Shown here one piece after another: positions 39,001-45,000 of a DNA stretch of 64,000 nucleotides. The position numbers are program-made. The stretch is from a virus (taxonomy: Duplodnaviria; Heunggongvirae; Uroviricota; Caudoviricetes): IMG/VR virus record IMGVR_UViG_2684623127_000007. One strand, given 5' to 3'. Within the stretch, counting starts at the first letter, position 1; each line of letters begins with the position of its first letter.

Positions 39001-42000
39001 CACCATACAAGAGAAGACAGCGTTGTGTTCAATGTACTGGATGTTGAATTCAGTTGCGGCGACGGAACTCATGTACGGGGAGATCTAATTGATGTAGTAC
39101 GCTCAATAGAACTTGATCCTGAATATGCCCGCCGCCTGGTCGGTAACAGAGCATTCAAGAACATAGAAATCGGTAACGCCAGAGGGGACAGCATGGCCCC
39201 AACAATCTCCCCGGGAGACTTACTGTTTTTAGATAAAACAGTAACTTACTTTGACGGCGATGGCATTTATGCATTTTGCTTTGATGGCGAATGTTACGTC
39301 AAACGACTTCAAAAAATTGGAAGCAAGATCATGGTCTTATCAGACAATCCCAACTATCAGCCATGGAGCATCGAAAAAGAGGGAATGGCGCTGCTCTATA
39401 TCCAGTCAAAAGTAATCTCATCTGTACCATTCAATATCAACAGATTTGGTTAGTTATTGATTTTAAATTAAATTATTGGTCATCCATCACAAAAAAAATC
39501 AAGTTTATCAATTTTTAATTGACAGTCGTTTTCCTGACACATAATATCTCACCATCAATTATATATTGATTAACTTCAACTTAGAATTGCATGGTGATGA
39601 TATGGAAGCCTTACAAACAACACCAAAAACATGTAGCCTCAATACTTACAACAAGGTTTTATGTGATGATTTAGATCTCGATTCTTTTGCATTAACCATC
39701 GCAAACCTGCTCAGTGCTGTTCGCACCTTCAACCTCCTAGATGATACGCGATTAAAAGAGGTTGGGTTTGATGTGCTAGAATTTACTCATGAATATGCTT
39801 TAGCGATCGCATCGACAAAACAACAACATTCTATCCGATCAGGCAACAAGATAGCCTGCATACGCACCAAACGTGAAGCCTGCGGCTTGACGACTACCGA
39901 ACTAGCCAGACTACTCGATCTTGACGAAGAGATTATTCTGCAATGGGAGAGTGGAGAGTTCGAGCCAACCATCAGCATGCTTATCCCCCTGGCAAACGTC
40001 CTGGGATGCGATCCGCTTTCTCTACTAAGTGAAAAAAACAGCGAGTCAGCTATTCGTGTAAATACGACTGAAGTCCATGCGGAAAGTATTGGCGCACGCA
40101 TCAAAAGCGCCCGTACAAAGCTGGGATTAACCGAATCTGATCTTGCCCGCATGATTCATACCTACAGTGACCCCATAAACGACTGGGAATGCGGCATCTG
40201 TGAAGTTCCTGCTGATCATATAGTACCACTGGCCAGTGCGCTTAATTGTGACCTGATGTGGTTGTTAACGGGAAAATCAGAAGCAAAGGAGCAGCAACAA
40301 TGACTGGCAATATCCATGATAAGTATGAAGGCTTATGCCTGGCACCGGATTCCTTTGCAAACAATATCCATAATTTATTATGCGCAGTTATCGTATTACA
40401 AATGTCAGACAACGACGCAATAAAAAGAACAGGTGATGAAGTTCTTGAATTTGTACGTTGCTATGCTGAAGCAGCAGCTGAAAAAGAACTATCCAGTTAA
40501 ATAGAACAAGTCATCTCCAGATACTATATTACGGCTTAATCGCCGGGGATTATCACACACTTAATCCACAGGAGGTTTTATTATGACTTTTATAAAACAT
40601 AAGGCATCACACAAAACAGCCTGCCTTATTGCACAACACGGGAAAAATCACATGCATATTGCCTGCTTGTTTCTGCGTAAAGCATACGGGAGATAATAAT
40701 GCATCAGAAAACAGCAGAACACGAACAAACCAGAGTATTGCTGACCATCAAAAACGGGAAAGTAATATTAATTCGTCATGTTCATGACGATGAATTTGTA
40801 GGAAATCTTTCAATATTCCTGTTTATTGCAGAAAAGGCAGGATATGACGTTATTGCACCAGCAGATGAAGATGAGGAATAAATTTCATGCAATACGCTGA
40901 ATTCCAGGCTGAAGCAACAGCCAATGGTATACAAACAGGCAGTATGACTATTGATTATCACGACGCCATACGCCGTCTGGATGCTGGAGAATTCGATACT
41001 CCTAATGTGCGAGGTTTACGTATCCTTCAGTGTCTCGCGCAAGCTGACGAAGCAGGATTACTGGGAAAACTTCCGGTTGAGATGAAGGTTGCCCAGTGGC
41101 GATGGTTGTATGTGACGACATTCATCAACGAAGAAGAAGACAAGAACGGCACAATTGATGTCCCGAATGAACACGGAACAACAGATCGCGCCGTAATATA
41201 TAACGGGAAGCATGGGGTTATGACGATATATCCCGGCCCCATTCGGTTTGCCTTACAGCAGTATATTGAATGGAATTTAATTCAAAAATACGGCGAGGCA
41301 GAAGGAATGGGTAGAGCGCTGTTTCTTTATCAGAAAATGCTCATTACATACCCAGATAAAGGTTTCATTGTTTCAGACATGGGGCGAGAAGGGCTTGAAC
41401 TCCTTCTGGATGAAATGATTAACGACCTGAATACTCATGGTATGCCAGAAGGCCAGTGACACATTAAATATTAAGAAGAATATAATTCTTCCGTTTTTTA
41501 CTAACCATTTATATGAAAAACAACCGTGAATTAAGCAGAGTAAAACTGCTTTTAATCCTTGCCACAGTACTGACAATAACAGAAATCATTATTCTCTTTA
41601 TTGCGCTGTCTGTCAGTTAAAAATATCGGGATACCACATACCAATGAGACTGTATTTCACAATAGTAATTTTACTGGCAATTATCGCATGCATTTACGGA
41701 TTACTCGTTCCGTTCCTTATATCCATGAAGGATACGATAGCAGTTACTTCTGGCTTTGCACTGGCGTTTCTGACCCCGCCCTGCATTTATGCCATTTACA
41801 AGGGTCTTTCTTTCACTAAGGATAAAAAATGAAAAAAATTATTTTTGCTTTAGCCATTGTTCTGCCGACCATTGGCCTTGTCGGCTGCGATCGCGTTGAA
41901 CCCGGTAATGTTGGCATCAAAGTAAATAAACTGGGCGACGATAAAGGCGTCGGTGAGGTGGTCGGTGTTGGTCGCTACTGGACTGGCTGGAATACTGAAG

Positions 42001-45000
42001 TTTACATCTTCCCAACCTTCAAACAAATGAAGACCTACGATGAGCCGTTCAGCTTCCAGATGAGTGACGGCACAACCATCGGCTATCACATCGGTGTTGC
42101 CTACAAAGTTGATCCATCCAAAGTTACCACGGTGTTTCAGACCTACCGCAAAGGCGTGGATGACATTACCGCCACTGACCTGCGCCAGAAGATCGCCGAC
42201 GCACTCAATCGACTGGCCAGCAAAATGACCACCGACAAATTTATCGACGGCGGCAAGTCTGAACTACTGGATGCCGCACTTAAAGACATTCAGGAAGAGA
42301 TGACCCCCATCGGCGTTCAGGTAATGAGCCTCTCTTATGTAGGTAAACCGGAATACCCGCCAACCGTTATCGACAGCATTAACGCCAAAGTCACGGCAAA
42401 CCAGAAAACCCTGCAGCGCGAACAGGAAGTCAAGCAACGTGAAGCGGAGGCCAACATGCTGCGTGCAGAAGCTGCCGGACAGGCTGATGCCATTCGAACA
42501 AAAGCCCTGGCAGAAGCCGATGCCATTCGTTTACGCGGCGAAGCTCTGCGCCAGAACCCTGGCGTCATGGAGCTGGAAGCCATCAACAAGTGGAACGGTA
42601 CACTGCCGCAATACATGACCAGTGGTGCCAATACACCATTTATCCAGATTAAATAACTTACACGCCCGGCAAACCGCCGGGTTAATGGAAAATCAGATGA
42701 ACAACCAGAATACTCAACCGCAAATAATGAACTATGACCCGAATCTGACGTCGTGCGGACGCATGGCAAAACAAACCGTTCGATTAACTTTCGGACTATG
42801 GGAATACCGCGAAACATTCGAAGTTACTGTCGGCGGCAATCTGACCGGACTGGATGTTATCAATTGCGCTATTGAAAGCCTGTACGCAACGCTGCCTTAT
42901 GAAGAAGTCCTGGATGAGCGCACAGGGAAAACGGATATCATGGCCACCATTAATATTGGCGAACTGATATGCCAGGATGAAGACCTGTCCGGGGAACTCT
43001 GGCTTGCCGGGATGCTTATCTCAGCAGAAATTATCAGCATTGAACCCGCTACAAACATACGGCTCTGAAGTTCTCACTATTCAGAGAGCAGGAGAAAAAA
43101 TGTTCGCTCTGATTAATCAGGGACAACTGTATACCGACAGTGCCGGTTACCCGGTAAAAATTGTTCGCTGCATAAACAACACCGTGTTGTACAGAAGATG
43201 TGAAGCGAATGTTTGAAGTGTGGTGCCACTGCCGTGGATGAAAGTTTTATGAGGTTGGCATGCAGACAATCATCTATCAGATAACCCCCAGCAAATGGTG
43301 TACGGAGAGAGTCCTCATTGCATCAACAGGGCTAAAGCCTGGCACCATCGAGCGAGCCAGAAGAAAGTCATGGATGCAGGGAAAAGAATACCGCCATTAC
43401 GCTGTAGAAGGTGATCCGGGGCATTACAGTGAATGCCTGTACAACATCGAAGAAATTATGCGATGGATCGAAAACCAGAAACAACCAGGTGCCAAAAATG
43501 CAAGTTCCGGTTAACCTGTTAATGCTCCTGGACGTCTGGGAGGTTTTATGAGTAACGCATCATACCCGACAGGCGTTGAAAACCATGGAGGATCACTCCG
43601 TATATGGTTTCACTATAATGGCAAACGTGTCAGAGAAAACCTCGGTGTTCCTGACACCGCCAAAAACCGGAAGATCGCTGGTGAGCTTCGCACTTCTGTT
43701 TGTTTTGCAATCAGAATGGGGAGTTTCGACTACGCCGCGCAGTTCCCTAATTCCCCTAACCTGAAACACTTTGGTCTGGGAAAAAGAGAGATAACCGTTA
43801 AGGCACTTTCGGAAAAATGGTTGGACCTTAAGAAAATTGAGATAGGAAGTAATGCATTCAGTCGGTATCAATCCGTGGTGAGAAACATGCTTCCTCGCAT
43901 AGGGGAAAAACGTCTTGCTTCGTCGGTAACAAAGGAAGATTTACTGTTTATCAGGAAAGATTTATTGACCGGGTATCATAATCTTTCTAACGGAAAAACA
44001 ACGCCGATTAAAGGGAGGTCAGTAGTTACGGTTAATTACTACATGACGACAATTGCAGGAATGTTTCAATTTGCGGCTGATAACGGCTATATCGTGTCAA
44101 ACCCATTTAACGGCCTGACACCATTAAAGAGATCCAGAACAGAACCAGATCCGCTCACACGTGACGAATTTATTCGTTTTATTGATGCCTGTCACCATCA
44201 ACAAACAAAAAACCTGTGGTCCTTAGCAGTATACACAGGCATTCGTCACGGTGAGCTAATATCTCTCGCCTGGGAGGATATTGATTTAAAAGCTAAAACA
44301 ATGACTATCCGTCGTAATTATACAAAACTCGGGGAGTTCACTCTACCAAAAACAGAAGCGGGAACTGATCGTGTTATTCATCTTGTTCAACCAGCTGTTG
44401 ATGCCCTGAAAAGCCAGGCTGAAATGACAAGACTTGGCCCTCAGTATCAAATTGACGTCAAGCTTCGGGAGTTCGGTCGCACCGCACGCCATGAATGCAC
44501 GTTTGTTTTTAATCCGCAACTGGTAAAAAAATGCCAGCAAGTCGGTCACCACTATAAAGCAGATTCCATCAGAGATTCCTGGGCATCTGCATTAAGGCGA
44601 GCAGGACTGCGGCACAGAAAAGCCTATCAGTCTAGGCATACTTATGCCTGCTGGGCATTATCGGCAGGAGCGAATCCAAGCTTCATAGCAAACCAAATGG
44701 GCCATGCAAATGCACAAATGGTATTCAACGTTTACGGAGCATGGATGAAAGATAACAATATCGGGCAAATAGAACTACTCAATAAGCAGTTGACGGAGAG
44801 TGTCCCATACATGCCCCATAGAGCCAGACTCTGAAATAATATCTTTAAATATCAGTTGTTTTAGTGGTAGTTGCCGTCACATTAACTGCATGACAGGGCT
44901 ATTTAAACAATCACTAAAAATCGCCCAAGAGCATTCTGTTTCTATAATGTATTCCAAGAGATTAAAAAATAATATCATACGTTATTCGGCAGAGTTCGTA

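Follow-up and report, generated by a model that had tools for sequence, protein, structure and literature searches.

The early region designated G-IV is an early-region type described in long-tailed ("L") Stx2 phages of O145:H28 by Nakamura and colleagues (PMC11333237). These L-Stx2 phages have been linked to lower Stx2 production than short-tailed phages, and the early-region type correlates with the Stx2 level (PMC11333237). Here we examine a stretch of 64,000 nucleotides of tailed-phage DNA (Caudoviricetes; IMG/VR record IMGVR_UViG_2684623127_000007), referred to below as the window, and within it the genes at 39519-43216, between the repressor gene cI and the xis and int genes. The DNA at 39400-43600 is 99.9% identical to that of six GenBank Stx2 phages, such as LC567830 (Stx2_112808), whose genome carries lambda-like head and tail genes and Q-stx2AB, and in which N is not among the annotated genes. 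In L-Stx2 phages, the counterpart of the operon is the G-IV early region. Phage phiP27 has genes g3 to g10 in common with the window, at 87% identity and in the same order, and they are its ORFs L03-L10, listed as unknown. Nothing substantive separates these genes from those of phiP27 or from the published L-Stx phages (LC567830 and its relatives), in which these genes are labelled 'hypothetical', 'transcriptional regulator' or 'serine protease'.

A preliminary description of this DNA had called the region the best candidate for something new, a view that its near-identity to published Stx2 phages, its correspondence to G-IV and its counterpart in phiP27 L03-L10 do not bear out. The operon is real, ordinary in kind and functionally uncharacterised, and its sequence is already public. 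As a whole it matters little: it adds another mosaic early-left arm to those of lambdoid prophages, and public Stx-phage genomes already contain it. We propose, with a probability of about 0.75, that it is the pL-type early-left transcription unit of a long-tailed lambdoid Stx2 prophage, under the control of CI.

The unit consists of ten plus-strand open reading frames (ORFs), g1 to g10, at 39602-43216, separated by gaps of -4 to +82 nucleotides; this agrees with the roughly 3.6 kb of closely packed genes reported earlier, and the earlier gene inventory was essentially right as well. Eight of the ten ORFs have family support in Pfam or PHROGs, and g3 and g6 have none. An N-family match was sought in Pfam, PHROGs and NCBIfam and none was found, the first gene encoding a tandem helix-turn-helix (HTH) protein, and nut sites were not searched for. 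The same three collections gave no homologs of cIII, kil or exo/bet/gam among the operon ORFs. The earlier statement that the operon is uncharacterised thus came through the homology check proposed for refuting it.

The pL-like promoter and its operators

The immunity region and left arm of the lambdoid prophage lie at 38.3-44.9 kb of the window. The cro gene (38374-38631, minus strand) encodes a YdaS/Cro-type HTH protein, and cI (38764..39453, plus strand) encodes a LexA-like repressor of 229 amino acids with Pfam HTH_3 and Peptidase_S24 domains, labelled 'phage repressor protein CI' in LC567830. Between them is an intergenic region (38632..38763) that represents the operator region OR.

The pL-like promoter and its operators occupy 39498..39570 on the plus strand. 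The TTGACA-17-TAATAT promoter placed between cI and xis/int in the preliminary description is indeed present (hexamers at 39519-39524 and 39542-39547), 65 nucleotides past the cI stop codon and about 55 nucleotides ahead of an ATG at 39602 that has a GGTGA Shine-Dalgarno sequence. Its hexamers agree with the sigma-70 consensus at 10 of 12 positions and form the top plus-strand match within 37.5-45.5 kb. The operator-like ATCAAG motif noted earlier is also real, occurring at 38659, 38670 and 38719 in the cI-cro spacer and at 39498 as an extra half-site ahead of the promoter; it is better described as the half-site of a 17-bp palindrome, ATCAAK-N5-MTTGAT. Two such palindromes, of the form ATCAAT-N5-ATTGAT, flank the promoter. 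The first, ATCAATTTTTAATTGAC (39507-39523, one mismatch), lies over the -35 hexamer, and the second, ATCAATTATATATTGAT (39554-39570), is a perfect palindrome over the expected start site, just past the -10 hexamer, and the sole perfect match in the window. Allowing up to two mismatches, ATCAAK-N5-MTTGAT has 17 matches in the window, 4 of them within 38670-39570, where about 0.24 would be expected in 0.9 kb (Poisson P ~1e-4, by our own arithmetic).

A heteroimmune Stx1a phage, LC567819, has a different cI and its own half-site, GTATCAA/TTGATAC, in both its cI-cro and its cI-g1 spacer. Because this pattern matches the behaviour expected of OR and OL operators, we read 39498-39570 as OL/pL. The operators that bracket the promoter are common to the cI-cro region, and for this reason the operon is expected to be off in the lysogen, where CI probably shuts it down. 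We hypothesize that CI would occupy both palindromes in the lysogen and that, upon induction or infection, transcription would cross the ten small ORFs and continue to xis and int, N-type antitermination playing no part. No convincing intrinsic terminator was found in 39548-43548, and since there is no notable terminator between the promoter and int, the unit probably extends to int in a lambda-like manner. Its downstream end is probably formed by xis (43260-43514, plus strand; a DUF1233 excisionase by Pfam) and int (43548-44834, plus strand; a tyrosine integrase by Pfam). Rfam gave no known RNAs in 39.5-43.2 kb.

Several observations weigh against such a repressed, single unit. Repression of the pL-like promoter by CI is deduced from sequence. 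The promoter scan overall returned 9 promoter-like sites against 15.9 in shuffled sequences, i.e. fewer than the shuffles, and because the scan is not enriched the hexamers alone are weak evidence; the promoter is credible because of its setting, namely its position and the flanking operators. Folding revealed no terminator hairpin between cI and the promoter, so that transcripts from pRM could read through and express the operon to some degree in the lysogen. Finally, a TATAAT hexamer (41481-41486) upstream of g6, together with hairpins flanking g6-g8, leaves room for moron-style independent expression of the cassette containing the SPFH gene g8.

Regulators, membrane proteins and exchanged cassettes

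The conserved core of the operon is the gene pair g7-g8. The g7 gene (41644..41832, plus strand; phrog_1130) encodes a 62-residue hairpin of two transmembrane (TM) segments with the loop motif P-x-L-[IV]-S-x-[KR]-D-T, and g8 (41829..42656, plus strand) encodes a 275-residue SPFH/Band 7 lipoprotein (Band_7, 1.2e-30; phrog_200, 1e-112) that scores 107.3 bits against Pfam PF01145, whose gathering cut-off is 23.6. The two genes share a 4-nucleotide ATGA overlap indicative of translational coupling, and g8 is followed by a GC-rich hairpin, GCCCGGC-AAACC-GCCGGGU (42664..42682, plus strand; -14.1 kcal/mol, z -2.7), with no U-tract. The g8 product has a lipobox, LVGC (Cys20), and because the residue at +2 is Asp it is predicted, by the classical +2 rule, to be kept in the inner membrane, with its SPFH domain in the periplasm as in the topology of HflK/C. 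A profile of seven phage SPFH homologs matches QmcA, prohibitin and HflC/K at ~1e-6. GenBank labels g8 a 'serine protease'; only Band_7, and no protease family, was detected in it, and the label probably stems from the association of NfeD/STOPP with stomatin operons. NfeD was considered as the SPFH partner and rejected: neither g6 nor g7 has a Pfam match, and at 62 residues g7 leaves no room for the NfeD OB domain.

The linkage of g7 and g8 extends well past the Stx phages. In the IMG/VR scan for SPFH genes, which covered relatives at 96% identity or more and hence speaks for linkage among close relatives, g7 stands beside g8 in 79 of 80 loci, and the upstream flank is missing from the one exception. 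At 7 of 7 places in Enterobacter and Klebsiella prophages (g7 identity 64-66%), a 64-residue gene overlaps a 275-residue Band_7 gene by 4 nucleotides; these pairs likewise sit between a cI-type repressor gene and xis/int, amid different cargo (ParE-like, ORF6N, Rha). In the two of the prophages L094-L100 whose first gene after cI has a Pfam match (L094 and L095), this gene encodes an HTH protein, and next to it comes a short gene that weakly matches Peptidase_S24. Two virulent phages also carry the module in their early regions: the Klebsiella N4-like phage MY01 has the pair, with its 4-nucleotide overlap, among its early or middle genes, and the Cronobacter rV5-like phage GAP31 has one small ORF between its g7 and g8 homologs (hidden Markov model E-values for the g7 family of 1e-11 and 5e-12, respectively). 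Pseudomonas phages have a two-TM gene at the g7 position, with marginal similarity (E 0.009 and 0.06). SPFH homologs as such occur in 717 phage records, which span Gram-negative, Gram-positive and archaeal viruses and include Kayvirus, Erwinia phages and haloviruses.

Two results weigh against the proposed reading of g7-g8. The g8 product falls below the NCBIfam equivalog cut-offs for both HflC (22.8 bits, cut-off 134.4) and HflK (19.6 bits, cut-off 159.4), and no g7-like gene was found next to the SPFH gene of the P1-like element RCS47 or of Erwinia phage Harbringer. Since the RCS47-type gene stands without a g7-like neighbour, the pair can be split. E. coli plasmids carry the SPFH gene by itself at about 200 places, on elements of the P1-like kind. 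In RCS47, one such element, a 91%-identical SPFH lipoprotein gene (L004, 2501-3328) stands alone between tRNA genes.

At the head of the operon, g1 (39602..40303, plus strand; HTH_3 twice, 1.9e-15; phrog_4836, 2.4e-92) encodes a tandem-XRE regulator of 233 amino acids with an N-terminal helical domain (residues 1-86) and two XRE/Cro-C1 HTH domains (87-145 and 160-230). The second HTH resembles those of the 434 and P22 repressors, which together with Cro are the relatives of solved structure. GenBank relatives start g1 at a TTG (39566), which would place it about 10 nucleotides after the predicted transcription start with no Shine-Dalgarno sequence; ATG 39602 looks like the better start. The label of phrog_4836 is 'CII-like regulator', and a lambda CII-type activator was tried as an identity for g1 and dismissed: Pfam Phage_CII is not matched, and the only families matched are HTH families of the Cro/C1 type. 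The following gene, g2 (40300..40500, plus strand; 66 amino acids; phrog_4587, 1e-35), overlaps g1 by a 4-nucleotide ATGA that indicates translational coupling. It had been taken for a truncated paralog of the tandem-HTH protein; g2 is a paralog of g1 (45% identity over 47 residues, E 7e-10 by BLASTP), but of its non-HTH N-domain only, as a stand-alone copy and not as a truncated HTH protein.

Heteroimmune relatives have unrelated sequence in place of the first ~72 residues of g1, while the HTH pair is 87-92% and g2 95-98% identical, and the breakpoint (~39863) falls exactly at the boundary between the N-domain and the first HTH. Other g1 relatives consist of the N-domain and one HTH. The N-domain segment (39602-39862, against 5275-5490 of L002 and 2785-3000 of L003) has been swapped together with the cI/operator allele, and the g1 N-domain is paralogous to g2 only in the immunity type of the window. 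Such a swap could reflect immunity-specific partners or a mere recombination hot spot at the domain boundary.

The cargo of the operon is a set of independently exchanged cassettes, g1-g2, g3-g5, (g6)g7-g8 and g9-g10, and not one coherent system, as its sequence comparisons with relatives indicate. Megablast places mosaic breakpoints at ~39863, ~40527 and ~41445. Stx1a phages keep g1 (its HTH part) through g5 and then carry entirely different genes, and among 5426 complete E. coli genomes the whole operon (at least 80% coverage) is found in 59 and pieces of it in 1012. The G+C content ranges from 0.34 in g6 to 0.51 in g8, whose neighbours are at 0.34-0.47. Because the cassettes travel independently, we do not regard g1-g10 as one system.

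The remaining genes are small. The 82-nucleotide spacer between g2 and g3 (40501..40582, plus strand) has a predicted RNA structure (-18.8 kcal/mol, z -3.5), matches no Rfam family, and coincides with a mosaic breakpoint, phiP27 homology beginning near 40527. It is followed by g3 (40583..40696, plus strand), a basic ORF of 37 residues with a strong AGGAGG Shine-Dalgarno sequence and no family, annotated in LC567819 and present in most related loci. The product of g4 (40699..40881, plus strand; phrog_340) has 60 residues and an acidic tail and weakly resembles certain anti-repressors in their C-terminal part, and that of g5 (40887..41459, plus strand; phrog_1515) is an acidic cytoplasmic protein of 190 residues whose confident alpha/beta model gave no neighbour in a structural search. 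The products of g3-g5 are small and cytoplasmic, and no known fold was recognised in them. At the g5/g6 cassette junction (breakpoint ~41445), a weak hairpin, GAAGAAT-ATA-ATTCTTC followed by CGTTTTTT (41475..41499, plus strand; -4.9 kcal/mol, z -1.7), overlaps the TATAAT hexamer. The next ORF, g6 (41513..41620, plus strand), would encode a single-TM protein of 35 residues; it has neither a Shine-Dalgarno sequence nor a family, and of 80 related loci about 50 contain it. We doubt that it is a gene, because its divergence from phiP27 is mostly non-synonymous (9 substitutions, 7 of which we read as non-synonymous from the alignment).

Past g8, g9 (42685..43068, plus strand) encodes a DUF5406 protein of 127 residues with a confident structure model. 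Conservation sets in at Met15 (MNYDPN), which may put the real start at 42727, and a literature search found no papers mentioning DUF5406. One database protein of 175 residues combines a Band_7 Pfam match with 85% identity to g9; it probably arose in some assembly when a gene-calling error or a frameshift bridged the g8-g9 junction.

The last ORF, g10 (43100..43216, plus strand), requires a correction to the earlier account: its 38 residues are a truncated DUF4222 (RgdR family) protein, the remnant of an 80-residue DUF4222 gene. The match (Pfam, 7e-10; 38.7 bits, cut-off 27) covers only profile positions 2-31 of 53. An O157:H7 prophage at the mlrA site (L093, 2168-2548) and Stx1a phages have the 80-residue gene and a 44-residue gene ahead of xis, and in g10 a deletion fuses about 33 N-terminal codons of the former, out of frame, to the 3' end of the latter. 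RgdR, the one functional lead that a literature search gave for DUF4222, is a prophage activator of type III secretion whose RGD motif is required (PMC10877973). Like RgdR (ECs1581), g10 matches DUF4222 and adjoins xis in a prophage of the enterohaemorrhagic E. coli type, but it retains about 33 of some 80 residues and no RGD motif, and on this basis is unlikely to be a functional RgdR equivalent.

Outside the operon, a pR-side ORF (36814-37476, with Ash and Rha domains) contains a C4 antisense RNA (37231-37318, minus strand; Rfam 84 bits, E 5e-16) and an isrK Hfq-binding RNA (37343-37419, minus strand; Rfam 56 bits, E 3e-10), both above the gathering score. This suggests a P1/Gifsy-type anti-repressor or anti-Q circuit controlled by antisense RNA in an Stx prophage. 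Past the end of the integrase gene there is an NleG-family type III effector gene (45702-46352, minus strand; Pfam T3SS_NleG, 9e-45), and from ~46.58 kb the ORFs appear transposase-like by eye; from these two features it seems that the prophage abuts another effector-carrying element.

Possible roles of the genes

No gene of the operon has an experimentally known function or a specific match in PADLOC, in keeping with the earlier remark that none belongs to a described system. Two of the readings that might account for the whole have been raised before. The preliminary description favoured a cluster for defence or superinfection exclusion expressed by the prophage, in which small membrane proteins and the SPFH lipoprotein would guard the lysogen like rexAB or sieB. 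Lambdoid prophage left arms do carry exclusion genes, P22 SieA and T5 Llp are examples of exclusion proteins located in the membrane, and PHROGs places the g7 family in the category 'moron, auxiliary metabolic gene and host takeover'; the elevated G+C of g8, the hairpins around g6-g8 and the absence of a terminator ahead of the promoter point the same way. However, the operators shared with the cI-cro region overlap the -35 hexamer and the predicted start site of the only strong promoter, the g7-g8 pair and other SPFH homologs are found in virulent phages that have no lysogenic state to guard, and the cassettes do not co-vary. PADLOC-DB v2 assigns g1 generic HTH matches (RmrA, HTH_VI, capH and similar) and g2-g10 none, Rex and Sie families are absent from the Pfam and PHROGs matches of the operon ORFs, and a literature search found nothing linking SPFH proteins to phage defence. 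The positional analogy also fails: rexAB lie between cI and pL and are co-transcribed with cI, whereas only 65 nucleotides separate cI from the promoter here and the genes occupy the N...xis position downstream of pL. We consider such a cluster decidedly unlikely. The Gifsy prophage defence protein GiPD474, which the literature search brought up, is an unrelated ATPase-domain protein. A control cassette for lysis and lysogeny in place of cII/cIII, with g1 acting like CII, g2 as a decoy and g8 as an HflK/C mimic that restrains FtsH as CIII does, seems to us only slightly less improbable, and might be one reason why L-Stx2 phages yield little Stx2. It draws on the 'CII-like regulator' label and on one relative annotated as 'putative CII repressor', on the lack of a cII or cIII homolog among the pR- and pL-proximal genes examined, and on the predicted HflK/C-type topology of g8, whose best, albeit weak, NCBIfam matches are HflC and HflK and whose SPFH profile matches HflC/K. 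The same idea has been proposed in phage genome papers (PMC8540360, PMC4936722), and the link between early-region type and Stx2 level (PMC11333237) would fit it. But g1 has Cro/C1-type HTH domains and no similarity to lambda CII, and these domains are conserved across heteroimmune phages; g8 scores far under the HflC and HflK cut-offs, and the profile of its homologs matches QmcA and prohibitin just as closely; and among the carriers of SPFH homologs are strictly lytic phages, for which control of lysogeny has no meaning (see also PMC8540360).

A further reading, that the arm is prone to recombination and holds largely decaying, non-functional cargo, would accommodate the deletion remnant g10, the non-synonymous change and missing Shine-Dalgarno sequence of g6, the lack of families for g3 and g6, and the variable content of the arm among relatives. 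We think it very improbable, because the families of g1, g2, g4, g5, g7, g8 and g9 are conserved between genera, the reading frames are intact, g5 and g9 have confident models, and two gene pairs are translationally coupled.

Within a CI-controlled early-left unit, the first products after induction or infection would be the g1 DNA-binding regulator and g2, and g2 would modulate g1 by binding its N-domain, either capping it or competing for it. The conservation of the g1 HTH domains between immunity types suggests that g1 has its target outside the immunity region. As a secondary possibility, g1/g2 may be the decision switch of N-less lambdoid Stx phages and help set their low Stx2 output. Because the early-region type correlates with low toxin (PMC11333237), g1-g2, as the first pL product, is a reasonable candidate determinant of induction efficiency in these pathogens.

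The role of phage SPFH proteins is described as unclear, or speculated to be HflK/C-like control of lysogeny or the formation of membrane microdomains (PMC8540360, PMC7150955, PMC4936722). By analogy with its solved relatives, g8 probably oligomerises into a cage of the HflK/C or prohibitin type; the cage would lie at the periplasmic side of the inner membrane, where g7 would be its partner. That phages which never lysogenise also keep the module favours a role for the pair during infection itself. We tentatively suggest, again by analogy, that g7-g8 might gate or restrain FtsH-type proteolysis or organise membrane proteins; it is just as conjectural that the pair might block DNA entry by a superinfecting phage during the infection cycle. 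More broadly, and with the same reserve, g7-g8 might be the enterobacterial form of a pan-phage module in which an SPFH cage is built early in infection and restrains FtsH-type quality control or seals the membrane. If true, a membrane cage built by a phage would represent a novel type of device for taking over the host or for exclusion, and the SPFH plus small-TM module is the part of the operon most worth a bench test.

Comparison with lambda and with SPFH cages

Like the pL/OL unit of lambda, the unit in the window lies downstream of cI, runs with the same polarity into xis and int, starts at a strong sigma-70 promoter overlapped by repressor operators that have sequence in common with OR, and contains small, tightly packed, mosaic genes. 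It differs in that its first gene encodes a tandem-HTH protein instead of an N-type protein, in having no cIII, kil or Red/Gam homologs, in having nothing rexAB-like between cI and the promoter, and in showing two recognised operators against three in lambda.

The g8 product shares with HflK/HflC, QmcA and prohibitin a Band_7 domain followed by a long helical region rich in alanine and glutamate, and with HflK/C the predicted inner-membrane anchor and periplasmic SPFH domain. Unlike in these proteins, the anchor is a lipid and not an N-terminal TM helix. There is a single type of g8 subunit and not a K/C pair, and it fails the equivalog cut-offs. The partner also sets it apart from described SPFH cages, being a 62-residue two-TM protein and not NfeD or FtsH, and g8 is encoded by phages, virulent ones included.

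In Kayvirus (Staphylococcus phage K group), the MbpV-MbpS pair adjoins lysis genes; MbpV has one TM segment and a sequence unrelated to g7, and MbpS, 22-24% identical to g8, has a TM anchor. The arrangement is nonetheless alike, in that the gene for a small membrane protein abuts an SPFH gene, there with a 1-nucleotide overlap, and the authors speculate on membrane microdomains (PMC7150955).

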